Assembly (NCBI GenBank): GCA_964437445.1
Contig: CAYTGR010000019.1
Coordinates: 5,502-69,501 of the forward strand
Origin: an uncultured Anaerolineales bacterium
GTDB lineage: Bacteria > Chloroflexota > Anaerolineae > B4-G1 > SLSP01
Reading direction: 5' to 3'
Length of the DNA: 64,000 nucleotides
In this document: in pieces, positions 49,083-64,000 of the stretch
Position numbering within the stretch: position 1 is the stretch's first letter
Layout of the letters: every line of letters starts with the position of its first letter
The notes under the pieces: model-generated
Told to the model about the DNA's origin: nothing
The model's database searches: none
What the model saw: only the letters and a program-made list of their open reading frames with translations
Program-made: the position numbers and the translations under genes

Positions 49083-49219
49083 GCCCAACGGCCTGTGCTT
49101 CACCTGCGCCGCGCAGCGCAGCGGAGCGGCGTCAGGTGGAACTCCCCCTGGCCGGCGAGGCCAGCCTTCCAACCGGAGGAACGTGCAGGGCTACGTTCTT
49201 AGCGAACGCTTGTTATCTG
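49083..49219. repeat. Copy B of the ~135-bp repeated structured element (see 45082..45216); overlaps the last 6 codons of the res-like gene and ends 33 bp upstream of the beta-helix gene start
   Basis: Direct alignment with copy A. Confidence 0.6.
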
Positions 49220-52200
49220 CCCGAACAGGATCCTCATGGAATCGTAATCCGCCCCACGTTCAAGGAAAAGAATGTGTTTTTCCGCAAACCTGACGCGATC
49301 CCACGTTCCATCATCATAGCGCTGATAGAGGTCATCATATGGTGTCGCGGAGATAATAAAGGCGTCCAGAAAAACATTGGTCCTTTCGCTTCGTTTTCCG
49401 ATTTCTCTTGCCAGTTCCGGTAGCCGCTCGTGCAGACGCGCTTTCTCATCATGGATGTAGGCTTTGGCGTGTATCATTCCATGGGGCTCAATGAACACAA
49501 TGCGCTGAGCGCCGCTATTCTGGTCAACGACCCATAGGATGAAGTCGGGATAGAAGCCGCGCTCCTCGAAGAAGCCTATTCCATAGCCGCGGCTTAAGTT
49601 ACGCAGCAGGAATACTTCCTTGCCCGCCAGCGACTTGTCTTTCTCGGCATTCCAATACTCGCGCAGGTCGCGCACGAAGCGCGCCTCGCTCTCCTTTAGC
49701 CCCGGCGGGACGATTTGCGCTTTTTCCGGCATGTCCACCAGGAGCGGCTGGTAGAGGTGGCGGTCGAAATGAATGCGCGGCAGACCGGCGTTCTCTTGTT
49801 CACAAAGGCGCTGTTGCTCCTTGAGCAAGGCTTGTACGGCCTCCACCAAATGCTCTTCTGAACGCGGGACTCGGACTACGTAGCCTGCTTTTTCTTCGCT
49901 CACCCCCTGCGGCCTGAAGTCCAGGTTGGGATCGCTGGCATCCAGCGGCCGATAGACCATGGTTTGCTCATCCCATTGTTCGCGGCGCGTCTGATAGAAG
50001 CGGTCCAGATACCGGCAAAGGAGTTGCGTCACCGCCTGCTGGAGCAGGACGCGGTCGGCAAAGGATTGCGGCGCGAACACACGCTCATCGGCGATCAGTG
50101 TGCAGAGGGGAATATCCCTGTCATTTTTCAGGCCGATGATCTGGCGCGGTGTTTCCGGTTGAATGACCAGGTTGGTCAGCCCTTTGTGCGTCTTATACGC
50201 CAGCAAGTCGAGATAGGCCTGCTGCCAATCCACCCAGGCCAGGCTTTCGGGGGGCAGAGGGCGCGCCCGGCCGCTGCGCACCTCGACGGCGTGCAGGCCC
50301 AGCCTGGTGCTTTCCATGGCCTGCACCCTGACCGAGAGATCCACCTGCACGGAGATGGAAGCGTCCGGTTCGAGGAGCAGGCTGGCCTCGCGGGCGAAAT
50401 CGCGGCCCTCCGGCGGGCGCGGCACGACCAGCCCGCGTTGGAGAAATTGCTCGTTGGCCCAGACGAACAGCGGCAGTTCGATGGCCGGTTCGACCTCCAC
50501 GCCTTCGCGTTCCAGGTAGTCGCGGAATTGCGCCATGTAGTTGGCGCGCACGGCGAAAATGTTGAGCGTCTCCAGCAGACGGATGTGTTTGGGATGCGTC
50601 CCATCCAGCGCCGCACTGCGTTTGAGGCTCATCCCCTTGCCCTTGAGGCGCACGCCGCGCCCGAGAAGTTGGATGATCTGCGAGCCTTCCTGCCGCCCGA
50701 TGTTCAAGAGGCCCATGCTGGCCACGCGCCAGGAGTTCCAGCCTTCCATGAATTTCTTGGCGCCGATGAGCACATGGATTCCGGAGTCGGGGCGGTTGAT
50801 GCGCTCGAAGAGCGAAGCGGCAATGGCGTCGTCCTCCAGGGTGATGCCGCCGGCATCCTCCTCCACCAGTTTCTTGAAGGCGGAGGTGTCGCCGATGAAA
50901 ATCAGGCCAAAATAGTCCTCGGCGCCCGCCGCCTTGAGGCCCAGTTCGCCGGGACTGCTCTTGATGTCGGCGAGATGCAGACCGCCGCCCGCCGGAGCGT
51001 GGAAGAGGCGCGCCAGGATGGCGGCATAGAGCTGCGCCGGAGTGAGATTCTCTTCTTTCAAGAAGGGGAAACGTCCGGCGAAAATATCCGCGCCGTCGGC
51101 GGAGACCAGCCCGGTTTTCCCGTCCAGGATGGCCTTGAGCGTTTTGACTGCCCAGGCGCGGTCGCTCAGCACGCGGTGCAGGAAGCGCGCCACGGTCAGC
51201 ACGTCGCTGCGCGGCTTTTTGTTCTCGGTGTAAACGGCATTGACCGTGCTGCCGACGAACACCCAGAGCGGCTTCTCCAGGTTGTAGGGACGCAGGGCGT
51301 CATCCTGTTCTTCATAGAGCCGGATTTGCTCGTAAAACGAAAGCAGGTTGCCCAGGAGCAGGGTCTCCCCCTCACCCCAGCCCTCTCCCCTCTGGGGAGA
51401 GGGGGGCGCGTCGCGCAGGTTCAGGATGCGGAAGTCCTTGCCGAAGCCGTCGCCGTAGAAGTAGCGGTAGGAATAGTCGAAGACGATGGCCTTGCCGTAT
51501 TCGGCTGTCAGCGGGTCGTTGCGCGCCGCCGAAAGCGCCTGCCCGAAGGTGGCGCTGTACTCGAAGGTGAAGCCGGTCGCGCCCAGGGCGTCGCGGTAGC
51601 CGCGCCAGGCCTCGCCGCCGGAGCCTTTGTGACCTTCGTCCACGAAGATGAGATTGCGCCCTTCGAAGGTATCCACCGGCACGCTCATGCCGCCGCCGCG
51701 CTTTTCTTCCACCAGTTTGGTGATTTCGATGACCTGCACGGCGTCCCGCCCGCCCGTCCACAGGCCGCTCGTGTTCAGGTCGAAGCGCCGCGCCGGAATG
51801 CCCGAGGCGGCGAGTTCCTCAAGGTGCTGCTCGCTCAGGCCCTCGTTGGGCGTGATGAGCAGGATGTTGTCCAGCGGGGGACGAGTCGCCGAATCGCCCG
51901 TACCGTAGTGCAGAAACTGGTAGTAGTTCAGGTGCAGGAGCAGGGTCTTGCCGCTGCCGGTGGCCATCCAGAAGGCCAGTTTGGTCAAATCGCCCTCGGT
52001 GAAGGGTTCGTCCTGCGGTTCGCCGGGCAGACGACGGGCGTTGCGCCCGGCGACAAAGGCATTCAGGTCGGCTAACAGTTGCGCTTTGGCGTTGAACAGG
52101 CAGTCGAGGACGATTTCGGTGTAGAGCGCCGCCAGGTACTGGAAGTAGCGCAGGGTGATTTTTTCCGTGCGCCCGCGGTTGATTTGCTCCAGGTGCCGGC

Positions 52201-52453
52201 GGATGTTCTGGTCGTAGCGTTCCAGGTCGGCGGCGGGAATCTTGACCTGACTGCCGCGGGCAATGAGATGGTGGTAGAGAAAACTATGCCCGTCCGCGCC
52301 AAAGCCTTCGGCCACGCTCTTGCAGTCTTCCAGGAGGGCGCGGTTGCTCGCATAGCCCAGGAGATGGTTGAGCCAGGCCAGCAGGACAAGGCGGTTTTCG
52401 AGTGTGACGTATTGCTGGAGGCCGTTCGGCATATCACGCCTCCACCCCGGCAA
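49199..52453 (-). CDS. Type III restriction enzyme Res-like subunit: SF2 helicase/ATPase plus C-terminal nuclease-like domain, with ~185-aa N-terminal extension
   Basis: Helicase motif I FWMATGSGKT, motif II FVDEGHKG, motif III SATFG, motif VI QLLGRGVRLKG. C-terminal region carries YPDFILWVVD...IVFIEPHGMIHAK (possible degenerate PD-(D/E)xK). Overlaps the mod stop by 20 bp. Confidence 0.7.
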   Translation of the reverse strand: MPGWRRDMPNGLQQYVTLENRLVLLAWLNHLLGYASNRALLEDCKSVAEGFGADGHSFLYHHLIARGSQVKIPAADLERYDQNIRRHLEQINRGRTEKITLRYFQYLAALYTEIVLDCLFNAKAQLLADLNAFVAGRNARRLPGEPQDEPFTEGDLTKLAFWMATGSGKTLLLHLNYYQFLHYGTGDSATRPPLDNILLITPNEGLSEQHLEELAASGIPARRFDLNTSGLWTGGRDAVQVIEITKLVEEKRGGGMSVPVDTFEGRNLIFVDEGHKGSGGEAWRGYRDALGATGFTFEYSATFGQALSAARNDPLTAEYGKAIVFDYSYRYFYGDGFGKDFRILNLRDAPPSPQRGEGWGEGETLLLGNLLSFYEQIRLYEEQDDALRPYNLEKPLWVFVGSTVNAVYTENKKPRSDVLTVARFLHRVLSDRAWAVKTLKAILDGKTGLVSADGADIFAGRFPFLKEENLTPAQLYAAILARLFHAPAGGGLHLADIKSSPGELGLKAAGAEDYFGLIFIGDTSAFKKLVEEDAGGITLEDDAIAASLFERINRPDSGIHVLIGAKKFMEGWNSWRVASMGLLNIGRQEGSQIIQLLGRGVRLKGKGMSLKRSAALDGTHPKHIRLLETLNIFAVRANYMAQFRDYLEREGVEVEPAIELPLFVWANEQFLQRGLVVPRPPEGRDFAREASLLLEPDASISVQVDLSVRVQAMESTRLGLHAVEVRSGRARPLPPESLAWVDWQQAYLDLLAYKTHKGLTNLVIQPETPRQIIGLKNDRDIPLCTLIADERVFAPQSFADRVLLQQAVTQLLCRYLDRFYQTRREQWDEQTMVYRPLDASDPNLDFRPQGVSEEKAGYVVRVPRSEEHLVEAVQALLKEQQRLCEQENAGLPRIHFDRHLYQPLLVDMPEKAQIVPPGLKESEARFVRDLREYWNAEKDKSLAGKEVFLLRNLSRGYGIGFFEERGFYPDFILWVVDQNSGAQRIVFIEPHGMIHAKAYIHDEKARLHERLPELAREIGKRSERTNVFLDAFIISATPYDDLYQRYDDGTWDRVRFAEKHILFLERGADYDSMRILFGQITSVR
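51366..51407. repeat. GC-rich palindromic ~39-bp element inserted in-frame within res (CCCTCTCCCC-TCT-GGGGAGAGGG core); encodes PSPQRGEGWGEGE
   Basis: Read directly. Related copies at 52669..52707 and 54707..54747 inside mod. Confidence 0.6.
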
Positions 52454-55400
52454 ACATGCGTTCCTTGAAAAGCGGATCCAGCGACTGCGCGCCGGGGATG
52501 AGCGAATCGCCGTTCACAAAGACCTCATCCGCGCCATCGGTCAGTTTCTGTTTGGCAACAAAGTCGCGGTCGCGCTCGTAGTCTTCTTTCGTCCAGCCCT
52601 GCGTCTCGCGCCAGATAACGGCCACGGCGCGCCCGTTTCGCAGAAGGCCGCGATAGACCAGGTAGCGGCCCTCACCCCCGGCCCCTCTCCCAGCGGGAGA
52701 GGGGAGGACGCGGCGCGTCTGCACGTCCAGCCCCAGCAGGTAGTTGAAGGTTTCGGGCAAATCCACCAGGCGCTCGCGGGTTTCGCCGTCGCGGTGGAAG
52801 CGCAGTTTGTAGGCGAAGGGCGTCTGGAGTTTCTCCACGTCCAGCAGGGTTGCGCTGTGGCGGGTCTCCCACTTGAGCATGTAGTGGAGCAGGTAGTCGT
52901 CTCGGAAGAGTTCCAGCACCTTCTGGCCGCCTGCGTCATCAAAGGTCAGGTTGTTGAGCGCGTCCTCGAAGGATTCCAGGCGGATGATTTTGACAATACG
53001 CGGGCTTCGTTCGGCTTCTTCGGCTGTCGCCATGCGCTTGGGCTTGCCGTCCTTCCACTCCGGCGTGAAGGTGACTTTTTTGATGCGCGGCAGGAGTACG
53101 GTGTCGAAGTAGTGCGCCATTTCAACAAGGATGAACTTGCGCCGCCCGCCATCTTCGCGGTTGAGGTTGATGACCGCGTGGCCGGTGGTGCCGGAGCCGG
53201 CGAAGAAGTCGAGAACTTGCTCTTCACTATTGAGATTGCACACCCGAAGACAGTCGTTGACTGTGTAAATTGATTTTGGAAAGGAGAACAAGGTTGTACT
53301 TCCTAAAATATGTCCAAGCAGGTTAGTACCATAATCGGTTGCTGAATACTTGCTGTCAAGCCAAAGTGTTGGCGGCAAGGTTCCATGTCGCATGCGAGAT
53401 TTCATGTAGACTCCCAGCCTGCCAGTTCTGTCTGGCTTTGCAACCAGCTCTGATAAATTTTTCATTGCTGTTTCATGTCCCCACTTCCATGTCTTCTCAT
53501 CTCCTTTTTCATCCACCGGCCAGACAACCGTTTCTTCTGCTGATGGCTCTTGAAGAATAGTCCAGCTACGTCTTGACTCATCCCATTCTATCTGTGGAAT
53601 ACGGAGGGAACCATCTGTGCGCGCATATATCGGATAGAAAAGCTTCGGTCGTGCGAATCTATTTGCGTTGAACCCCCCGTGTTTGCGAAAATTTACCCAT
53701 TCAAATCGTCCTTTTGCATCAGATTCGTTATATCTCGCGATTTGACGCTCGGTTTTCGCAAGTTCGCCAATTGTGACTTCCTTGGAATAACCGACAAAGA
53801 GTGCATAGTCGTGAGAGACTGAGAGCCCCGTTATGGCAGACCTGCCTGCAGGGTTACTGCGAACTACTACTGTACCCAGAATTGACTCGGTGCCAAAAAG
53901 TGTCTGTAGGGCCATGTGTAGCCGACTATACTCAGAATCGTCAATGGCAATGCACCATTGTCCGTAAGCTTCCAGAACAAATGTCGAGAGAAATATACGG
54001 TCTATAAGCAAGGTAAGCCAAGAAGAATGCTTGTAATCGTTTTTGTACAAGATTTCTGATGCAGCCGTGTTATACGGCGGGTCAATGTAAATGCACTTCA
54101 CCCGCTGGCGGTACTTTTCCTGCAACAGGTTGAGCGCCTGCCAGTTTTCGGAGTGCACCAAGAGACCGTCGGTGAGTTCGTCAAGATTGTCAAACGAAGC
54201 CAGCAGGCGGTCGGTGAAGTCTTGGGGGAAATGGCGCGTGTCGAGCGGCAGGGTGGGATGGGCCTGGAGAAAATCCACGCGCTGCTGCGCGCCTTTCGGC
54301 GACTCAACGGCCAGGAGCGCCCGCCACTCCTCCCACTGCGCCTCACAGGCGGCGATCTCCGGGTAGAACGCTTCGGGGATGTTGCCGACGGTGATGACGT
54401 AGAAGGTCTCGGTAACAAACTTCTTCTTCTCCCAGAGCATCTTCTGGAAGTCTTCGATTTGCGCCAGAAAGTCAATGATAACGCTGCCAATGCGCTTGAC
54501 CAGGCGCATGAGCTGGAACCAACCCTCGGCTAATTGCTCGCCGGCGGCTTCCATCTCTTCAAGGTTGAGCGCTTCGTTCTTCAGGTAAAAGTCGAGTTCG
54601 CGGGCAAGAAAGCCGCGCAGGTCCTTGTGGATGAAAAAGTCGCTGGTGTTGCGGCGGGTGTACTGGCGCAGGTGGTATTCCAGCAGGGAAACCGCCGCGC
54701 CATTTTCTTCCCCTCTCCCTTTGGGGGAGGGGGCAGGGGTGGGGGTGCGCCGTTCGGCGGTCAGCGCGGCTATGGCTTCGGGGGCTTTGATGCGCTTGGG
54801 AATGTCGGCGACAGCTTTGGCAAGGATGGCTTCCTGCTGGTTCTTTTGACCGTAGGCGATGGTCTCCTGCGCGGTCAGCGGGCGGAACTGGAAGGGGATG
54901 GTCAATGTGCGCGACGCTTCATCCCAGGCGAGGCCGTCCAGCACGGGCAGGAAGAAGCGCTTCTCGCCCTTGATATTGCCCTGCTCCACGTCGGCCTGCC
55001 GGAGTTCGAAGCGCACGGTCACGCCGTTGGGGGCTTTGTAGGTGTAGTCGGTGAAATACTCGCCGGTCTTGACGTAGTACTGGTCGTGGTTGGCCCAGTA
55101 GAGCGTCACCTCCTCGCCGTTGTAGGGGATGGCGTAGCGTTCCTTCTTCGAGTAGCGGCGCCTGGAGATAAAGTCGCCATCCTGCCAGTAGCGGGAGAAG
55201 AAGGCGTAGAGGTGGTTGTAGATGGCGGCTTCCAGGGTCTCAGTAGAACGAGCGCCCCGGGCTTTGGCCTGCGCTTCCAGGTATTCCTTTCCCGCTCTGG
55301 TAGCGCGGTAGGTTTCGGCCAGGTTGCCGTCGGCGTCTAAGGCGTCTTCGCCCAGCGCGTCCAACACCTTCTGGCGGGCGGCCTGCAGGGCTTCCTGCGC

Positions 55401-55595
55401 CTGTCCCTGCTCGGCCAGCGCGCCGCGCCGCAATTCCTCGGAGATGGCGCGGGGCAGGTCTTCGGTAATCCACTTCTCGATCGCCTGCCGCTTGTAATTC
55501 ATGATGCGGTAGATGCCGAAGTCCAGGTCGGCGCAATCAAATTGGAAAAGGTCGCGCAAGAGGGATTGGAATTGTTCAAGAGGTCTTGTCGTCAT
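52434..55595 (-). CDS. Type III-like DNA N6-adenine (or N4-cytosine) methyltransferase Mod, beta-class (motif IV before motif I), with ~500-aa N-terminal extension of unknown function
   Basis: Motif IV IYIDPPYNT at ~residue 520 and motif I DFFAGSGTTGHAV at ~residue 790, with an AT-rich TRD between them. N-terminal 1-500 has no recognised domain (starts MTTRPLEQFQSLLRDLFQFDCADLDFGIYRIMNYKRQ). 1053 aa. Confidence 0.8.
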   Translation of the reverse strand: MTTRPLEQFQSLLRDLFQFDCADLDFGIYRIMNYKRQAIEKWITEDLPRAISEELRRGALAEQGQAQEALQAARQKVLDALGEDALDADGNLAETYRATRAGKEYLEAQAKARGARSTETLEAAIYNHLYAFFSRYWQDGDFISRRRYSKKERYAIPYNGEEVTLYWANHDQYYVKTGEYFTDYTYKAPNGVTVRFELRQADVEQGNIKGEKRFFLPVLDGLAWDEASRTLTIPFQFRPLTAQETIAYGQKNQQEAILAKAVADIPKRIKAPEAIAALTAERRTPTPAPSPKGRGEENGAAVSLLEYHLRQYTRRNTSDFFIHKDLRGFLARELDFYLKNEALNLEEMEAAGEQLAEGWFQLMRLVKRIGSVIIDFLAQIEDFQKMLWEKKKFVTETFYVITVGNIPEAFYPEIAACEAQWEEWRALLAVESPKGAQQRVDFLQAHPTLPLDTRHFPQDFTDRLLASFDNLDELTDGLLVHSENWQALNLLQEKYRQRVKCIYIDPPYNTAASEILYKNDYKHSSWLTLLIDRIFLSTFVLEAYGQWCIAIDDSEYSRLHMALQTLFGTESILGTVVVRSNPAGRSAITGLSVSHDYALFVGYSKEVTIGELAKTERQIARYNESDAKGRFEWVNFRKHGGFNANRFARPKLFYPIYARTDGSLRIPQIEWDESRRSWTILQEPSAEETVVWPVDEKGDEKTWKWGHETAMKNLSELVAKPDRTGRLGVYMKSRMRHGTLPPTLWLDSKYSATDYGTNLLGHILGSTTLFSFPKSIYTVNDCLRVCNLNSEEQVLDFFAGSGTTGHAVINLNREDGGRRKFILVEMAHYFDTVLLPRIKKVTFTPEWKDGKPKRMATAEEAERSPRIVKIIRLESFEDALNNLTFDDAGGQKVLELFRDDYLLHYMLKWETRHSATLLDVEKLQTPFAYKLRFHRDGETRERLVDLPETFNYLLGLDVQTRRVLPSPAGRGAGGEGRYLVYRGLLRNGRAVAVIWRETQGWTKEDYERDRDFVAKQKLTDGADEVFVNGDSLIPGAQSLDPLFKERMFAGVEA
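52669..52707. repeat. GC-rich palindromic element copy 2 (CCCCTCTCCC-AGC-GGGAGAGGGG) in-frame within mod; encodes PSPAGRGAGGEGR
   Basis: Read directly; same orientation and flanks (CCCTCACCCC) as the copy in res. Confidence 0.6.
54707..54747. repeat. GC-rich palindromic element copy 3 (inverted orientation) in-frame within mod; encodes PSPKGRGEENG
   Basis: CCCCTCTCCC-TTTG-GGGGAGGGGGCAGGGGTGGGGG aligns with the reverse complement of copy 1. Confidence 0.55.
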
Positions 55596-57196: not shown

Positions 57197-59089
57197 TTAT
57201 TCTCCTTCGATGAAATTCCAAAGTGCCGGCTCTTCTTGACGAGAGTCTTGCGCGATGATCCAGATTTGTCCTGCGGAGTCCGCAGTTGCGGCCTCTATGT
57301 CCATATCCGTAACGGAAAGCAATTCGTTGCCTTCCAGACGGTAGACCGAACCGCTTTGGAAGAGCCACAGCCTGCCTGCGCCATCGAATACAAGGTTTGG
57401 AGAGGCGTCTGTAAACGCAAGCGTTTGTTCAGTGCCAAGAATTTCCTGCCAGGCGCCATCTTGCAAATGATAAAGGCCGCGCGCCGCGTCGCAACTGGCG
57501 CCGCCGCATAGGGCGGAAAGCGCCCACAGGTCTCCGTCAGGGCCGGGCAGCATAGCCAGCGGGTAACCCTGGCGATATTCTCCCGAATTGGGAATCACAA
57601 AATCGTTGAATTGCCGGGTTCCCTGGTCGAATTGCCGCACGAGGCCGTTCGCCATGCCGAGCCACACGTTCCCATTCTGGTCGGATGTAATTGCAGTGAC
57701 GCAGCCCGTGCTTGTCATCCCGCCGCGCCAGTGGCCCTGCCCGGCGGCAAAATCGGACGTATCCAGCCAACGCGCCCCGCCCCCGCCCATTGGCCCTTCC
57801 GCCCAGTCGCATTCGCCCACCCAGATTTGCTGGCGCTCTTCGACAAAATGAATGTGGAGTTCCATCAGCAAGTCGTTGGTCAAGGCAGGCGGCATGTCCA
57901 GGGTATCGCGCGTAAAAATCGTCCAGCGTCCATCGGCGTAGACGCGGATATCCTGCCCGGTAGCCAGCCACACCTGGCCGTGCGCCTCGCTGAGAACGCC
58001 GCGGCCTTCCAGCGAAGCCGGGTTGGAGGGCGGCAGCCAGCCTGCATCGGCATGAACAAAGGCAGAGCCGCCATAATCGGCCAGGGCGCTGTCCCAATAG
58101 AAAATTGTAGTGGGCACTTCTTCCGGGTAGAACCACGACCTGCCGGCATCGTCCACCCCGATGAAGCGTTGGGACGGCGCCAGAAAGTATGATTGCCAGG
58201 CGCCCTCCTGGAAGACGGCGTAGCCATTGGTGGTCATCAGGCGCAGGGCGCCATTCGGTAGCGCCTCCAGGTGGGTGATTTCACCGCTCAAATCTGCGGG
58301 CAATGCGGCAACTTTGTGAAAGGCAACCGCTGCTTCGCTGCCAGACGCCAGCGGATAGACCAGTGTCCATTTTTCATAGTCCAATGGATTGCCTGCTGTT
58401 TGCTCGCAATCCCGGTAACGCGCCTCATCCAGCACAAAGCGTTCGCCTGCGAGATGGTATTTGTAGAACACGCCGCAATCTTTGAGACCGCGATAGGCGT
58501 TCAGGTTGGTCAATGTTTGCGTCTCAGGATGGTAAACAGGGAAGGCGCCGGTGAGCGTATCCACTTCTTGCAGGCCACGCGCCGGGTCATCCTCCTGAAG
58601 CAGCACCGGCACGTAGATGGGACGTGCAGACGGCGGCGTAGCGCGATAGTCCAGCCAGTAGAGGCGCTCTTCCACCCAGTAGGGGCCGAGGTTGCAGGTC
58701 ACGAAGGCCAGGTACTGCCCGTCGGCGGCCGGATAAAGTTCAATGCCGCCCGCCTCCCCAGGGTCCCGCTTGAACCGCCCGAATCCTTCTTCGCAGTCCT
58801 CGGGCCAGCCCAAAAACGCTTGCCAGGCGGGGCGTTCATCGTAGCGGATGAATTGCGTTTGTGGGTCAAGGGTCGCTGTAGCCGTCGGCGCGGCAGGGCT
58901 ATGCCTTGCAATGGCCGGGGTGGCCGTCGGCGCGGCAGGGCTATGCTTTGCAATGGCCGGGGTAACCGTCGCAATCGCTGACGTCCCAGAGGGCAAAGGG
59001 GTCGCCTGCGAGTTTGTGCAGGCTGCCGTCAGCAAAATTGCCAACAGCAGAACAATCCCACCCACCCAATGATTATTCCACTTGCTCAT
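57197..59089 (-). CDS. Lipoprotein with two-component-regulator-propeller-like beta-propeller repeats; N-terminal 14-aa tandem duplication
   Basis: Signal peptide and lipobox (VLLLAILLTAAC) with AGGAGG 6 nt upstream of the ATG at 59089. Repeats such as NGNVWLGMANGLV and DGDLWALS. A 42-bp tandem repeat at 58882..58965 encodes PAIAKHSPAAPTAT twice. Confidence 0.55.
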   Translation of the reverse strand: MSKWNNHWVGGIVLLLAILLTAACTNSQATPLPSGTSAIATVTPAIAKHSPAAPTATPAIARHSPAAPTATATLDPQTQFIRYDERPAWQAFLGWPEDCEEGFGRFKRDPGEAGGIELYPAADGQYLAFVTCNLGPYWVEERLYWLDYRATPPSARPIYVPVLLQEDDPARGLQEVDTLTGAFPVYHPETQTLTNLNAYRGLKDCGVFYKYHLAGERFVLDEARYRDCEQTAGNPLDYEKWTLVYPLASGSEAAVAFHKVAALPADLSGEITHLEALPNGALRLMTTNGYAVFQEGAWQSYFLAPSQRFIGVDDAGRSWFYPEEVPTTIFYWDSALADYGGSAFVHADAGWLPPSNPASLEGRGVLSEAHGQVWLATGQDIRVYADGRWTIFTRDTLDMPPALTNDLLMELHIHFVEERQQIWVGECDWAEGPMGGGGARWLDTSDFAAGQGHWRGGMTSTGCVTAITSDQNGNVWLGMANGLVRQFDQGTRQFNDFVIPNSGEYRQGYPLAMLPGPDGDLWALSALCGGASCDAARGLYHLQDGAWQEILGTEQTLAFTDASPNLVFDGAGRLWLFQSGSVYRLEGNELLSVTDMDIEAATADSAGQIWIIAQDSRQEEPALWNFIEGE

Positions 59090-59122
59090 TGCGGCCTCCT
59101 GGTTGCGAACTGCCATTCCTGG

Positions 59123-59410
59123 CTATCCCAAGGAACGTTTTAGCCTGGTCATCAGAAACACGCTCGACACAATGCCCAGGACAATCAGCGTCAGGACGAC
59201 AACGCCCGTGTACCATTCCCAACGGTAGGAAACGCCCACCAGTCCCAGCCGCCAGGTCATTCCCACGAGCGATACGAACGTCAGTCTGTAGACTGGATGG
59301 GGAACGACAGGCGCTACGCGGATGGGGATGAGCGGCAAGCATCCAAGCCCAGCGCAGACAAAGAGCAGGGTCAGAAGATAGCGGAAAATAGTGCGCCAGT
59401 TGCTTTTCAT
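59123..59410 (-). CDS. Small hypothetical membrane protein (3 TM)
   Basis: 95-aa hydrophobic ORF. Its start overlaps the stop of the upstream small gene (ATGA). Confidence 0.3.
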   Translation of the reverse strand: MKSNWRTIFRYLLTLLFVCAGLGCLPLIPIRVAPVVPHPVYRLTFVSLVGMTWRLGLVGVSYRWEWYTGVVVLTLIVLGIVSSVFLMTRLKRSLG

Positions 59411-59721
59411 TCCTGGCGTTTCCTTTCCCCTGATAGTTTGGTCAGCGTATCCAGGCTTTGCTTTTGCTCTGCCATTCTGGAAATGGCCTCGAGGAGCCCG
59501 TTTTTGAATCCTTCATCCTGTATCCCTCTCTTTGTCAGTTGTTGCGACACATGTTCCTGGCGTGCCTCTTCGTTCAACTGCCAGAGTTCTTCCAGGCATT
59601 CGTCGCAGATTTGCTCCACGAAGAAAATGGCATCGGCCGTCAGGCGAGAGAAATGCCGTCCACAAAGGAGGCAGTCAAATTCCCTGTTTGCCATACAGAT
59701 GCCCAGGCTAAGACCGGTCAT
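59407..59721 (-). CDS. Small hypothetical protein with CxxC...CxxC zinc-ribbon-like motif
   Basis: FDCLLCGRHF...ICDECLEEL. Confidence 0.3.
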   Translation of the reverse strand: MTGLSLGICMANREFDCLLCGRHFSRLTADAIFFVEQICDECLEELWQLNEEARQEHVSQQLTKRGIQDEGFKNGLLEAISRMAEQKQSLDTLTKLSGERKRQE

Positions 59722-59863
59722 GACTCAACTCCTTTGAATGGAAATCCTGCAAGAAATCAAGGTTCGACATACTTTCCAACCAACTCGGTGAGATCGTGCA
59801 GCGTCAAAATGAACTTCTCGTAATCCGGGACGACTGTCACGCGCCGTCCTAACGATCTGCTGC

Positions 59864-60157
59864 TCAGCCGCAGCCGCGAAGCGGCTGTCGGCTGCAGCGG
59901 CGGGTTAGGCGCAGGTTTATCCCACCAGATACACCGCCTACCCTGGTCTGCACTGCGATGCGCTGGCCGTTCAAACTGTAGTACGTCCTGTTGACTTGCT
60001 GTGTGTCGGCGATGAAGGTATCCACCGCGCCGCCGTACACCGTCCTCCCGCCGCCGGGCAGGAGTTGCAGCACGCGGTCTCCGTCGCTGTCATACCAGAA
60101 CCGCGTTACTGCTCTGGTCACAGTATCCGTCACCACGGCTGGCGGTTTTTGGCGCAA
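59864..60157 (-). pseudogene. Rhs/YD-repeat fragment (orphan remnant)
   Basis: RFWYDSDGDRV and TYYSLNGQRIAV are YD-repeat-like motifs. No N-terminal region and no RHS core end. Confidence 0.45.
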
Positions 60158-60190
60158 TACACCCTTACGGAATGAACACGAAGGTCTATT

Positions 60191-60589
60191 TCAGTGCTTC
60201 AGTCTTGCCTCAAGGTCACGAATAACTCCGTACCATTCTGCCGCGTTTTCTGATTCATCCCAGAGTTCCTTGAGTTCTGAGGCGGTTTTGACTCGTTTGA
60301 CTGCTCTCGATGCCAGTCCAGACAGGCTCTGATCTCCAACCGGATGCCGGCTGATCCACTGCTTTACCTTGTCCGGCAAGTCGGGGCTACCAACACCGTT
60401 AAGCGCCGCAACGAGTTCCGCCGCTGCCAAAGCCCGACACGCCTCAGGGGCTTCCACATACTCATCCCTGCCCTCGGCAACAAACCTGAGTACCTCTTCA
60501 ATGACGGATGCATCTTCGGATTGCTCCAATTCCGCGACCCAATCCATAGCGTCATCATTTTCAAAGTTTCTTACACCCCATGTACCCAT
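60191..60589 (-). CDS. DUF4259-family protein, candidate immunity protein
   Basis: N-terminus MGTWGVRNFENDDAMDW matches the DUF4259 signature (MGTWG..FEND.A.D). Located inside the Rhs cassette array. Confidence 0.55.
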   Translation of the reverse strand: MGTWGVRNFENDDAMDWVAELEQSEDASVIEEVLRFVAEGRDEYVEAPEACRALAAAELVAALNGVGSPDLPDKVKQWISRHPVGDQSLSGLASRAVKRVKTASELKELWDESENAAEWYGVIRDLEARLKH

Positions 60590-60736
60590 TGTGTGTCTTC
60601 TCCTTCAACCTCGCCATACCCTGGCGGGTCGTGAATAGCACCTTCGTTCCGCAGAAACACCTGACCTATCTGGCACTTGGGCTAAGCCGGGCGAACGGCT
60701 ACATGTAGATGTAAGCGAGTGCTTGCTGCTAACAAG

Positions 60737-60937
60737 CTACCTCTCGCACAAGAGCTTGGTTAAGACAATTTCAACCGCTTCGTATCCATAGGTGCCATCA
60801 TCTGGAAGGTCCACAAGGTCCTCCGCGTTACAACGAGTCCGTTTAGGTAACTCCCATCCATTAGTATCTTGACGATACTCTACTAACCACCCCTTATTAG
60901 GGTTTAGTGGGTCTATATAAGTGTACTTCCATTTCAC
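60737..60937 (-). CDS. Small hypothetical protein in AT-rich segment
   Basis: 66-aa ORF only; no recognisable motif. Confidence 0.2.
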   Translation of the reverse strand: MKWKYTYIDPLNPNKGWLVEYRQDTNGWELPKRTRCNAEDLVDLPDDGTYGYEAVEIVLTKLLCER

Positions 60938-61000
60938 TCATAAATCAACTCTTTGCATTCACTTACTCTTTGGGAAATGCTACCCTGGTACCGGATAAGA

Positions 61001-61438
61001 TCATGGCTGCAGACAATCATAGTAATAAGGGGGAATGGAGTCGGTACATTGCCATTCTGTTGTGCTGCTGCTGTAACCGCACCACGTGTCATTGGATCCG
61101 GCTAGTCGAAAGTATAGAATATATCCTCCCCCCCCTGAACAAGCAGTATAGGTATATGGATACCTTCGCGCCGGCCGGGGTATCGCCTCCAAATACTCTG
61201 GCACAAGTTCCTCAACAGTGGATGGGAATCGATCGTTGTTGTGTTCGTAACGTTGTAAAGCCATCAGGAGTTCATAGGCACGCACTTGACCTTGTTCTAA
61301 CGAGGCTGCATCTACAGCGAAAATTGTAGCATACAAATAAATACTGCCTACACATCCTAGTAGGACAACTATCACCAACACCCCGAATACTGGTCGCCAG
61401 GTGAGGTTCAAAAACATATGGCTTTTCAAGTTACTCAT
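61001..61438 (-). CDS. Candidate immunity protein (N-terminal TM anchor) for the adjacent Rhs C-terminal toxin
   Basis: Immediately downstream of the Rhs-CT gene with a 3-bp gap. One TM helix, then a Cys/Tyr-rich soluble domain. AT-rich. Confidence 0.4.
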   Translation of the reverse strand: MSNLKSHMFLNLTWRPVFGVLVIVVLLGCVGSIYLYATIFAVDAASLEQGQVRAYELLMALQRYEHNNDRFPSTVEELVPEYLEAIPRPARRYPYTYTACSGGGGYILYFRLAGSNDTWCGYSSSTTEWQCTDSIPPYYYDCLQP

Positions 61439-61441
61439 AGG

Positions 61442-62698
61442 TCACCTCGCCCACGGTCTGGGATAATACCAGGGAACCCGCATCCCCGGCGTATCCAGCG
61501 CCCAGATTCCGGGCGTCGGATCAAGCGCGAAGCGCGCAACAGTTCCCACTTCGCTCATATTGACAATCGTGTCATGTAACATAGCGCCATGCTGAACCCC
61601 AATATAGCCTAGATTCAAATCAGGTACATTGCGATCACTCAAAGGGCCATCTCGCAGCCAATTGCCAGAACAACCCAGGTATGGGCCGTAAAAATACCCC
61701 AGGTAAAAAAGCCCAGCATAATGGTGGCTTGGGTTTTCATCGTCAACAAGAGCCGGATCCCAACCTGCCGTTCCCTCAAACAGAGGAGTATTTGCAGTCC
61801 ATGCGGTTCCAGGGTTGGTTGCCATCTGCCAAGTCGCCGGAATAGCATGACCTAATGGGACACCTCCCCAAATAAAGCCAATAGCTTGCGCGTAAAGATT
61901 CTCTTCCCCTGCTTGGTAATACGTGGCTAACCGTTCAAGGTGGGTGATAAAGCGATCTAGACCCGGTGCTGATGCATTGGGCCATTGGAAACCTGTACCA
62001 CTCCACAATTCTGCTCGATGTTGGTTGTAGAGAATCCAGTCACTATCTGTCCAGGCGCCATCTGGTCCACTGCCGGAATAAAGTATTGAGAAAAATCGAT
62101 CCCGTCGATCTTGATCTGTAGGCATACTCCCATGCGCCGCATAGAAAGCCTGCTCCCAGGCAGCATCAATGGGATCGTGTCCACTTGGATCCAGGTACTT
62201 GACAGGATTGTTATATCCGTATACGTATCCGTAGGCGTAGCGATTCAACGATTGGGGAGCAGCAGGATTGGGGACTAGGACATCCGCGCTGACAAACCGT
62301 CCTAACGACGGCGAATACATCCTCGCGCCATAGTCATACAGCCCCACGCCCTCCCACGGCTGGCCGGTGTAACGCCGATTGGTCGGCGTGCTGCCCCATT
62401 CGTAGCGCGTGACGCCATACGGGGTGTAGCGCAGTTCGCCCACCCGGTTACCGCTGGCGTCGGTCGCCACGGTCGCACTCCCCAGATGGTCGCCGTGCAG
62501 GAAGTACAGCGTGTTTCCTTGCCGCATTGCGATACGCTGCCCACCGGCGTAGTAGTATTTGGTCACCACCGCCCCTTGCTTCTCGTAGTAGTCGCCGATG
62601 TAAACCCGCACCCCGCTCCCATCCATCCGCAGGATACGGTTGCCGTCGCCGTCATACACGAAGCGCGTGACCTGCCCGGTGACCGTGTTCGTCACCAC
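61442..62698 (-). CDS. Orphan Rhs C-terminal module: a few YD repeats, RHS repeat-associated core end (DPxGL-type motif PVKYLDPSGHD), then ~240-aa variable C-terminal toxin domain
   Basis: YD repeats (RFVYDGDGNRIL, YYYAGGQRIAM), core terminus LYFLHGDHLGSATVATDASGNRVGELRYTPYGV...RYTGQPWEGVGLYDYGARMYSPSLGRFVSADVLVPNPAAPQSLNRYAYGYNNPVKYLDPSG. The C-terminal domain is unrelated to other proteins in the window. Confidence 0.8.
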   Translation of the reverse strand: MVTNTVTGQVTRFVYDGDGNRILRMDGSGVRVYIGDYYEKQGAVVTKYYYAGGQRIAMRQGNTLYFLHGDHLGSATVATDASGNRVGELRYTPYGVTRYEWGSTPTNRRYTGQPWEGVGLYDYGARMYSPSLGRFVSADVLVPNPAAPQSLNRYAYGYVYGYNNPVKYLDPSGHDPIDAAWEQAFYAAHGSMPTDQDRRDRFFSILYSGSGPDGAWTDSDWILYNQHRAELWSGTGFQWPNASAPGLDRFITHLERLATYYQAGEENLYAQAIGFIWGGVPLGHAIPATWQMATNPGTAWTANTPLFEGTAGWDPALVDDENPSHHYAGLFYLGYFYGPYLGCSGNWLRDGPLSDRNVPDLNLGYIGVQHGAMLHDTIVNMSEVGTVARFALDPTPGIWALDTPGMRVPWYYPRPWAR

Positions 62699-62910
62699 GC
62701 TAAGCCGATTTTCGGCGTTTTGTATTCTCGCGTGTAGGTGATGCGCTGCGTGCCCGAAATCTCCACCCGCAGGACCATATTCCCGTTGGCGTCATACGCC
62801 GCGCGGAAGCCCGCCGTGGTGCTCACGACGGCAAACGGCGACACGCACGCCGCCAGCGGCGGGCTCTCCGGCCCGTACCCCTTCATCACCAGCGGAAAGC
62901 CATAGCACAA
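62692..62910 (-). pseudogene. Rhs YD-repeat fragment in a different frame, contiguous with the downstream Rhs-CT module (frameshift or recombination scar)
   Basis: AAYDANGNMVLRVEISGTQRITYTREY is YD-repeat sequence. It ends 6 bp inside the next ORF in another frame. Confidence 0.45.
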
Positions 62911-62928
62911 GCGGAGTTAGTTCCCCAG

Positions 62929-63276
62929 TTACTTCAACCCCCGCCGCCGCTTCGCTTCCTCCAGCAACGCATTCGCATCCCGAACCCACTTCCTGGCATC
63001 CTCTGCCTGATCCGTCACTCCAAGACTCTCTGGCTCAGATTGAAAGGTTAGATCCAGCATTACCTCTTCCCGACTGGTCTCCTCATCGTGCACCAAACGG
63101 AATTGCAACATTTGCTCTGGCTCTATCCCAAAGTGAATCCCCGGAGGGACCATAAAAATCTTGGCACCTCCATCCTCGTGTGAGATCACAAAGGCGTATA
63201 ACGTTGTTTCCCTATCTATCCACATATAGCGCTTATGCCAGCCGAAACGGGTAATGCGCGGTTTTGTGCGTTTCAT
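62929..63276 (-). CDS. Candidate immunity protein for the upstream toxin domain
   Basis: 115-aa ORF (MKRTKPRITRFGWHKRYMWIDRETTLYAFVISHEDGGAKIF...) starting 5 bp after the stop of the toxin-CT ORF. The longer track ORF starts at 63420. Confidence 0.4.
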   Translation of the reverse strand: MKRTKPRITRFGWHKRYMWIDRETTLYAFVISHEDGGAKIFMVPPGIHFGIEPEQMLQFRLVHDEETSREEVMLDLTFQSEPESLGVTDQAEDARKWVRDANALLEEAKRRRGLK

Positions 63277-63281
63277 AGCCC

Positions 63282-63977
63282 TTACTCCGGTATTCTGCCT
63301 ACCACCCGCCAGGGCGGCGGTAACTGCAACAGCGCAGGTACGGCCAGTTTGATCCGTCCCTGCCGTACCACCGGCAACGGCGAAAACGGCACGACCTGAT
63401 TCACCATCGTGCAGGCCCACGTCACACAGTTGTACGCGTCTACAAAGTTATCTGGGTTAAACGAGTACCGGTATGGCCTCGGCCCCGGCTCACCCAACGT
63501 CGCCCGCAACCGCCGGGTCGTCTCCATCGGCACATCCCGCGAAACCTGCACCACTCCAGGCATCCCCACTTGGCCCAGCATTTCAAGATCGTCTCTCACC
63601 GTACCAGGAACCGCATTCTCAAATAAATTGACCGGGTAAAACTCTCTCTGCGGATAAAACCCTCTGACCTGGACATCATCGCCGATTCTGGTGTAGACCG
63701 CCATATGGCCGAAATCCTCAGTCCCCAGTGTTCCCCTCAAACGGGCAATGACGCCGATCTCCGCCACTTTCTCCACATCTACCACCGTATCCGCCACGTT
63801 GGCAACATCGTGGGCGGTATCTACCGCATTGATCGCCTTGCTCGCCCACTTGGCAGCTCGGATGGCATGGCTGGCCCCCGCCGGCACCACCGGCAATACT
63901 ATTGAAGCCACATCGGTTGCCAACGACACCGTGTTCCAGAAAGTGAACCCCTCGTTCCGAATGTCGTTGAGTGTCAT
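63282..63977 (-). CDS. C-terminal toxin-like domain of a larger (likely Rhs/polymorphic toxin) protein continuing beyond the window edge
   Basis: The ORF runs to the window edge. It is followed by a small immunity-like gene and then a further orphan Rhs-CT cassette. Domain identity is unknown. Confidence 0.4.
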   Translation of the reverse strand: MTLNDIRNEGFTFWNTVSLATDVASIVLPVVPAGASHAIRAAKWASKAINAVDTAHDVANVADTVVDVEKVAEIGVIARLRGTLGTEDFGHMAVYTRIGDDVQVRGFYPQREFYPVNLFENAVPGTVRDDLEMLGQVGMPGVVQVSRDVPMETTRRLRATLGEPGPRPYRYSFNPDNFVDAYNCVTWACTMVNQVVPFSPLPVVRQGRIKLAVPALLQLPPPWRVVGRIPE

Positions 63978-64000
63978 CCCCAGCGAAATGATGTCGAAGG

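Follow-up and report, generated by a model that had tools for sequence, protein, structure and literature searches.

A row of Rhs fragments interspersed with small open reading frames (ORFs) occupies the last few kilobases of a 64,000-nucleotide stretch of DNA (hereafter the window) from an uncultured Anaerolineales bacterium (NCBI GenBank assembly GCA_964437445.1, contig CAYTGR010000019.1). The row raises two questions: (i) whether the fragments are toxin tips that were displaced from a main rhs gene and kept together with their immunity genes; and (ii) what the tips and their small neighbours are likely to do. On the first question, we conclude that these last kilobases form the distal end of a polymorphic-toxin locus of the rhs (YD-repeat) kind that has undergone successive C-terminal displacement and then erosion by deletion, a reading to which we assign a probability of roughly 85%. 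The kind of locus and its architecture are already textbook knowledge; the new content lies in the toxin family of one of the two tips, CT2.

Read along the minus strand, the region consists of the tip of the main rhs gene (CT1), the immunity candidate Imm1, an orphan core fragment joined to CT2, a gene for a 145-aa protein (Imm2c), a stub of an Imm26-family gene, a DUF4259 gene and a YD-repeat stub (Table 1). A first-pass annotation, made from the sequence alone, had listed these elements as an array of displaced Rhs tips with their immunities, and each of them was recovered on the minus strand at or near the position it gave. The alternation of GC-rich and AT-rich segments that it described is likewise borne out, with a G+C fraction of 0.61-0.65 in the rhs-core pieces and 0.43-0.52 in the tips and small ORFs. 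Among the nine ORFs of the region, small and large, the only Pfam or NCBIfam matches are to Rhs_assc_core and DUF4259, and neither tip family is described in these collections.

The first-pass annotation had placed a main rhs gene upstream, outside the window, and had staked its interpretation both on the existence of that gene and on the fragments not resolving into intact rhs genes once frameshifts were corrected. The exact 418-aa product of the orphan module led to a 17-kb JGI metagenome contig (L001), which matches the window at 100% identity for 12,559 bp and reaches 1,924 bp beyond the window end. On this contig the reading frame running into the window is uninterrupted for at least 880 codons, back to the start of L001, and encodes RHS repeats in six stretches (PF05593, E 1.2e-44; L001:1-2643) and a core end, PVRYRDPSGHW, which is followed directly by the domain at the window edge. 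There is therefore a main gene upstream, but it does not lie wholly outside the window: the edge domain (63282..64000, its frame still open at the window edge), correctly seen as a partial toxin-like C-terminal domain, is, in the JGI assembly at least, the tip that belongs to the main gene itself rather than an orphan. The main gene thus has the repeat shell, the core end with a variable C-terminal domain, and the adjoining, co-varying immunity gene candidate that characterize Rhs/YD-repeat toxins. The tails that follow the main and orphan core ends are unrelated to each other.

The orphan core carries the second part of the argument. Over the final ~700 nt of the main core the two are collinear, and a DNA alignment between them (A1) gives 85% identity over 722 nt. 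Identity is ~93% at the 5′ end, then drops in a divergent patch, and then becomes complete over a run of 239 nt (62310-62548); shortly ahead of DPSGH the two diverge again. Compared with the main gene, the orphan carries a 2-nt AA insertion at 62720-62721, and it is because of this insertion that a YD-repeat fragment (62692..62910) and the 418-aa Rhs-CT ORF (61442..62698) lie in different frames. The fragment does stand in another frame, as had been reported; its separateness did not hold up, the two being one collinear core copy. The 418-aa module itself is as described, with a match to TIGR03696 (Rhs_assc_core, E 4.7e-17, aa 91-174), the core end PVKYLDPSGHD and a ~245-aa tail that no Pfam or NCBIfam model matches.

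Upstream of 62898 there are ~30 non-coding nucleotides and the stop of Imm1, and a stop codon closes the frame of the fragment. Correcting the frameshift therefore adds only ~70 codons, up to the stop just after Imm1, and yields no full-length gene. The module shares the 3′ core, lacks both the N-terminal part (400+ residues) and in-frame initiation, and ends in a different tip, as is expected of an orphan. We regard the ~700 nt of core homology together with the 239-nt identical run as the signature of C-terminal displacement, in agreement with the first-pass view that tips had been displaced and kept with their immunities. The same order, in which a main rhs gene is followed by a tip/immunity pair and then by orphan fragments with CT2-family tips, also occurs in L003, L004, L006, L008 and L009.

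Orphan rhs-CT/rhsI modules that keep an interrupted upstream rhs coding sequence have been described (Poole et al. 2011, PMC3150448). In the rhs loci of Dickeya dadantii (rhsC), Yersinia pseudotuberculosis and Salmonella Typhimurium, as here, a full-length rhs gene bears a variable tip after DPxGL/H with an immunity gene directly downstream, displaced tips, each followed by its immunity gene (here a positional candidate), retain upstream rhs sequence that is interrupted by a stop or a frameshift, and the shared core permits recombination (PMC3150448). Unlike these enterobacterial loci, the present one probably belongs to Chloroflexota, is accompanied by no vgrG, PAAR or type VI secretion system (T6SS) genes in 64 kb, and has two tips that both fall outside the Pfam and NCBIfam families. 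Tip displacement and orphan storage thus operate in Chloroflexota-type genomes without a T6SS, a lineage in which such loci are little described.

Past CT2, the array can be compared with sibling contigs, and the comparison reveals how it was eroded. The window matches CT2-bearing siblings at 94% from 62221 down to 60920, and matches ten contigs from other samples (L014-L023) at 96% between 60928 and 59872; 9 nt at 60920-60928 (…AAGTACAC…) belong to both blocks. The tiny ORF noted in the first-pass annotation is present (66 aa, 60737..60937), but its status as a gene is not upheld. It has no Pfam match itself, and it corresponds to the last ~66 residues of a 165-aa sibling protein whose residues 14-113 match the Imm26 model PF15428 at E 5e-23. 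Given the overlap of the blocks, we read it as the last third of an Imm26 gene, the 5′ part of which was lost when the CT2 cassette joined. In the sibling contig L011, an IS110-family insertion sequence (IS) element begins exactly at the 60920-60928 junction (L011:1089 onward; transposase gene L011:1324-2538), and because it starts at this same point an IS-associated rearrangement is likely. An IS110-family transposase gene is also found after the CT2 cassette in L006.

The DUF4259 gene that follows is intact, and its family assignment is confirmed (PF14078, E 2.8e-34; 119.2 bits against a gathering cut-off of 22.8). Its product is at least 90% identical in the ten contigs L014-L023, where it comes directly after Imm26 in toxin/immunity arrays, and this array context makes it a probable orphan immunity gene. 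In L014, the longest of the ten, the order is an rhs-CT, a gene for a 154-aa protein with multiple transmembrane (TM) segments, a second rhs-CT with a weak GIY-YIG start, the 165-aa Imm26, DUF4259 and the YD remnant. Two other orphan tips thus stand in the place of CT2 there (L014:1867-2661 and L014:1381-1845), one followed by the multi-TM protein, and the other, with its weak and apparently truncated GIY-YIG start, by Imm26; their presence shows that cassettes turn over rapidly within one lineage. The final YD-repeat remnant, found as annotated (ORF 59864..60157) and kept in L014-L023, aligns over ~70 aa to VVTNTVTGQV…QRIA of the main gene. At the DNA level it is 77% identical to 62629-62717, and its 5′ limit, which corresponds to 62717 in the orphan, falls beside the AA insertion.

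Immunity genes that outlast displaced toxins, as DUF4259 and the Imm26 stub appear to do here, are also a feature of the T6SS auxiliary clusters of Vibrio cholerae (PMC5361080). The present array differs from those clusters in being rhs-based, and in that one immunity gene is truncated at a junction abutted by an IS110-family element in a sibling. The comparison of sibling strains documents both the erosion and the rebuilding of such an array: an IS110-family element lies at a microhomology junction in an immunity gene, a conversion tract spans 239 nt, and one protein, considered below, may be a recombinant.

The same signs of erosion could be taken to mean that everything downstream of Imm1 is decaying debris, that is, pseudogenised leftovers without present benefit as toxin reservoir or immunity. 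The frameshifted orphan core, the truncated Imm26 gene, the YD stub and the IS110-family element at the junction in L011 would all be expected in that case, as would a G8 tract in the 145-aa gene, with a truncated 111-aa form in sibling strains, and the absence from the window of the lipoprotein family that is cognate to CT2 (by tblastn). Against such decay, CT2 retains an uninterrupted run of 249 codons, ~94% DNA identity to its siblings and all of the family-invariant residues, DUF4259 is intact and conserved in many samples, and the identical 239-nt run shared with the main gene is a sign that gene conversion or recombination took place recently. We consider it unlikely, though deserving of some weight, that the distal array is debris, and we prefer displacement followed by partial erosion.

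With regard to the second question, the tip of the main gene can be placed by its fold. CT1 has a papain-like core with a circular permutation, such that the catalytic His precedes the catalytic Cys and the Cys lies at a helix N-terminus, and it groups with PPPDE, the MARTX RID domain and PLAAT4, which form the permuted NlpC/P60 group with His before Cys. From these features we infer that CT1 is a permuted NlpC/P60 Cys-His hydrolase. The domain at 63282..63977, for which the first-pass annotation had proposed a Pfam comparison, matches no Pfam model, and CT1 together with 39 relatives gave no Pfam or NCBIfam match at E values up to 0.05. Lacking such a match, CT1 makes up a new sequence family, though one inside a known superfamily; it has 59 representatives among 1.84 billion proteins.

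CT1 resembles two known toxins, the T6SS effector TseH of V. cholerae (PDB 6v98) and Tox-Act1 of Salmonella, in having the His on an early strand and the Cys at a helix N-terminus, and it is likewise read as an antibacterial toxin with an adjoining immunity gene. It differs from both in sequence, with only 9% identity and no Pfam match to the YiiX, LRAT or DUF4105 models, in an immunity candidate that lacks an export signal, and in an activity that is predicted only. It differs from TseH also in its delivery, CT1 being an Rhs tip behind a hydrophobic linker and TseH a free T6SS cargo. Permuted NlpC/P60 toxins, including TseH and Tox-Act1, act on lipids according to a 2026 study (PMC12994826), and by analogy CT1 would most likely attack membrane lipids, as a phospholipase or an acyltransferase. 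With CT1, the permuted NlpC/P60 toxins gain a branch delivered by Rhs proteins.

The small ORF that had been placed 5 nt after the toxin stop is indeed there, with its ATG at 63276, 115 codons and its stop at 62929. Its product, Imm1, has no TM helix and no signal peptide (maximum KD19 0.77). A metagenome scan with a narrow CT1 alignment found six loci (L024-L029) in which an Imm1 homologue (37-67% identity) comes directly after a CT1-family toxin (53-78% identity); in L024-L026 the tip/immunity pair is then followed by orphan rhs fragments, as it is in the window. The pairing of CT1 with Imm1 is well supported by these loci, and Imm1 is a candidate, judged from sequence, for a soluble protein that would neutralise CT1.

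CT2 is less easily placed. It comprises ~245 residues after DPSGH and is conserved in dozens of proteins at identities from 70% down to ~25%, always behind an Rhs core. The homologues with a named source come from Caldilinea, Anaerolineae and Thermoflexus, with one from a fragment of an Alphaproteobacteria metagenome-assembled genome, and the invariant or near-invariant positions include D28, R32, D51, Y92, E96, H156, H157 and D191. The AlphaFold model consists of eleven helices and is confident (predicted local distance difference test, pLDDT, 89.8; predicted template-modelling score, pTM, 0.89), and a Foldseek search found no structural relative for it (best E 0.45, TM 0.22). None of 29 family members has a Pfam match outside the Rhs part, and a profile built from 29 CT2-family sequences matched PDB sequences only in its Rhs-core columns. 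The first-pass remark that this domain matched nothing recognisable therefore stands for Pfam, NCBIfam and PDB alike.

As CT2 is acidic (isoelectric point 4.7) and not hydrophobic, it looks like a soluble enzyme and not a pore-former; with its all-helical model, it would be an enzyme whose fold is new. Several motif-based identities were also considered, namely a lysozyme or transglycosylase, PAP2 (from a PSGH-like 'PSHH'), Tox-SHH/HNH and HEPN; none of them is supported, given the all-helical model and the lack of a structural match.

Where CT2 might act is suggested by the genes beside it. In seven of seven divergent loci the next gene after the CT2 homologue belongs to a single lipoprotein family (Table 1), whose members have a signal peptide and lipobox, or in L004 a TM anchor, ahead of a WELPGI…YAWSE.DQEF…GWI domain. 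This domain, which is duplicated in L004, has a sub-threshold match to SH3_3 and no Pfam family of its own. In these loci the CT2 homologue lies downstream of rhs genes or of other rhs-CT fragments or, in L007, at least precedes a run of small ORFs. When the lipoprotein family was compared with the whole window by tblastn, nothing was found. The position after CT2 is taken here by the 145-aa product Imm2c. Its gene begins 3 nt beyond the CT2 stop and, as the first-pass annotation had indicated, the protein is TM-anchored, with a single TM helix at its N-terminus (KD19 2.7).

The Imm2c family is small, with 11 representatives, and a 62%-identical homologue is found in a housekeeping context at a contig end. 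At the G8 homopolymer within the gene, the versions in P0203, P0205 and L011-L013 are truncated to 111 aa, which may reflect slippage, phase variation or a sequencing error. Since the lipoproteins and Imm2c alike are anchored to the membrane and face outward, the most likely site of action of CT2 would be the envelope beyond the cytoplasmic membrane. Its confident structural model, its lack of relatives and its two unrelated extracytoplasmic partner families make CT2 a tractable candidate for a new antibacterial envelope activity.

By analogy with established Rhs systems, the locus could work as follows. Only the main gene would yield a deliverable toxin; its Rhs shell would enclose the tip, and autoproteolysis after the DPxGH motif would free it. 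The orphan CT2 would remain silent until homologous recombination through the shared core grafted it onto the main gene, a reaction for which the 239-nt identical stretch would provide the substrate. The immunity genes that are kept in the array would shield the cell against neighbours bearing the corresponding tips.

A different scenario for CT2 is that an internal GTG at 62698 allows independent expression of the 418-aa orphan ORF, which forms an intracellular toxin-antitoxin-like module with the downstream gene instead of a silent reserve. The ORF is intact over 418 codons from this GTG, gene callers put starts at the same position in the homologues P0018 and P0019, and there is a reported precedent in a Salmonella orphan rhs (PMC7043789). 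The start, however, has no prominent promoter or Shine-Dalgarno signal, promoter and terminator scans are at chance level, and the extracytoplasmic partners of CT2 fit poorly with the neutralisation of a toxin that is made in the cytoplasm. Self-expression is thus improbable, and we favor the silent reserve.

The repeated core also raises the issue of assembly. P0018, a 412-aa protein from a 75-kb NCBI contig, has an orphan-type 5′ segment (…RMDGSGVRVYIGDYYEKQGAVVTKYYY…) joined to a main-type core end and CT1, and the switch point lies inside the 239-nt identical run. Two further products of that contig are a DUF4259 protein identical to the one in the window and a member of the 90% cluster of the 418-aa protein. 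P0018 may be a real product of unequal crossover, or it may come from an assembler walking round the repeat. If the rhs core cycled the assembly graph, the order main-CT1-Imm1-orphan-CT2 might itself be mis-joined, and in favor of this the chimera switches within a run that is longer than typical k-mers. However, the JGI contig, which was catalogued independently, does not differ from the window at any base across 12.5 kb, the junction of Imm1 and the orphan included, sibling contigs independently span CT2-Imm2c (L011-L013) and Imm26-DUF4259-remnant (L014-L023), the same gene order is present in unrelated loci, and a real unequal crossover would give such a chimera just as well. A mis-joined array is likewise improbable, and we retain the displacement reading.

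Several points nevertheless weigh against our account. The sequence upstream of CT1 differs between two assemblies of the same organism (L001 and the P0018 contig), and the N-terminus of the main gene lies beyond the start of L001, so that 880 aa is a lower bound on its length. The activities of CT1 and CT2 are predictions only. The lack of an export signal in Imm1 would suit a toxin that acts in the cytoplasm, but the assays of Tox-Act1 were made in the periplasm. Imm2c is not homologous to the lipoproteins that follow CT2 elsewhere, and it adjoins CT2 only in near-identical strains (L011-L013), where it is often truncated to 111 aa. For DUF4259, a literature search found no published evidence of a role as an immunity protein.

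Going further than the displacement reading, we tentatively put forward a joint proposal, in which we have somewhat less than even confidence: that CT2 is the founding member of an undescribed enzymatic toxin fold, that its target in Chloroflexota belongs to the envelope outside the cytoplasm, that immunity proteins tethered to the membrane and drawn from two or more unrelated families counter it, and also that the conflicting assemblies (L001 versus P0018) may capture ongoing tip-switching recombination in a natural population.

As to delivery, the tip of the main gene opens, directly after DPSGH, with a hydrophobic linker of ~75 aa (WVETAFDIISLGMTLNDIRNEGFTFWNTVSLATDVASIVLPVVPAG…). The linker (63789-64000 plus L001:1900-1924; WVETAFDIISLGMTLNDIRNEGFTFWNTVSL...VPAG) matches no Pfam model. 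It also precedes unrelated toxin domains in P0124-P0133, including the PT-HINT and AHH protein P0130, and it may be a translocation or pre-toxin module. The first-pass annotation had proposed a check for PAAR, VgrG or T6SS genes nearby; no PAAR, VgrG, Hcp or other T6SS family is present among the ORFs of the window. Because of this, and because the best-named homologues are from Chloroflexota, delivery is probably T6SS-independent.

The locus is similar in this regard to Bacillus subtilis WapA, which has a YD-repeat shell, a polymorphic C-terminal toxin and an adjoining immunity gene, and which is delivered without a T6SS. In two loci with related main genes (L003 and L006) there are faint SpvB-type N-terminal matches, which point to a BC-toxin-like architecture and away from WapA. 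The shell, polymorphic tip and adjoining immunity gene are shared as well with a Listeria Rhs toxin that is associated with a type VIIb secretion system and is reportedly delivered without a T6SS (PMC10327511); like WapA, it belongs to a bacterium that has no T6SS.

At the distal end of the array, where the rhs homology stops, there is a strong though imperfect hairpin of 64 nt. An 87-nt version is found at the same place in four siblings (L015:2209-2295, L016:2183-2269, L017:1967-2053 and L021:1247-1333), in which 23 nt are inserted at the centre and a change strengthens the pairing, and window and sibling sequences diverge ~10 nt past it. An Rfam scan of 58800-64000 gave a chance-level match only. 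The hairpin is attC-like in having the boxes and bulged bases, as judged by a crude scan. That it is a true attC site through which cassettes were mobilised as in an integron is most improbable, for although the palindrome has RYYYAAC and GTTRRR boxes and is kept in siblings with a variable central part and divergence just beyond, it is the sole such site in 64 kb and related loci carry none but its orthologue, none lies between cassettes, the scan of the large ORFs turned up no integrase family, chance could by estimate account for the box matches taken alone, and the cassette boundaries are explained by rhs-core homology and the microhomology/IS junction.

Table 1. Coordinates of the features discussed; positions are those of the window unless a contig is named
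Feature	Coordinates	Strand	Remarks
Main rhs gene, hydrophobic linker module after core end	63789..64000	-	DPSGHW just beyond window; gene runs on upstream
CT1 toxin domain of main rhs gene, 168 aa + stop	63282..63788	-	predicted permuted NlpC/P60-like His-Cys hydrolase
Imm1, 115 aa, cognate immunity candidate for CT1	62929..63276	-	adjoins CT1; pairing in 6 other loci
Orphan rhs core fragment	62192..62898	-	collinear with main-gene 3′ core; frameshifted; ends PVKYLDPSGH
CT2 orphan toxin tip, 249 aa including DPSGH, + stop	61442..62191	-	conserved all-alpha family
Imm2c, 145 aa, TM-anchored, positional immunity candidate for CT2	61001..61438	-	Cys-rich ectodomain; G8 tract 61128-61135
3′ remnant of Imm26-family gene (tiny ORF)	60737..60928	-	~96% DNA identity to sibling Imm26 3′ end
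DUF4259 gene, intact, 132 aa, probable orphan immunity gene	60191..60589	-	PF14078 match
Terminal YD-repeat remnant, ~70 aa, without core end or toxin tip	59925..60157	-	homologous to VVTNTVTGQVTRFVYDGDGNR...QRIA of main gene
64-nt imperfect hairpin (GCCTAAC...GTTAGGA), distal array end	59847..59910	-	rhs homology stops there
Lipoprotein genes	L002:8325-8618, L003:8013-8426, L004:8485-9300, L006:6382-6777, L007:6254-6709, L008:4186-4593, L009:6062-6460		each after a CT2-family toxin

Just past the hairpin, on the minus strand, two overlapping genes (59123-59721) encode two proteins without a family match, one of 104 aa with CxxC...CxxC and the other, of 95 aa, basic and containing two hydrophobic segments. 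Because the sibling strains diverge at this point, these genes may be part of another variable insertion. The other large ORFs of the window encode housekeeping, regulatory, Chlamydia-PMP/Ig-repeat, DUF1176 and DUF6585 proteins. Finally, we note a pair of overlapping minus-strand genes at 49199-55595, with products of ~1,050-1,080 aa that have an N6_N4 DNA methylase domain and a ResIII helicase domain; the pair looks like a restriction or defence module, a few kilobases from the rhs array.

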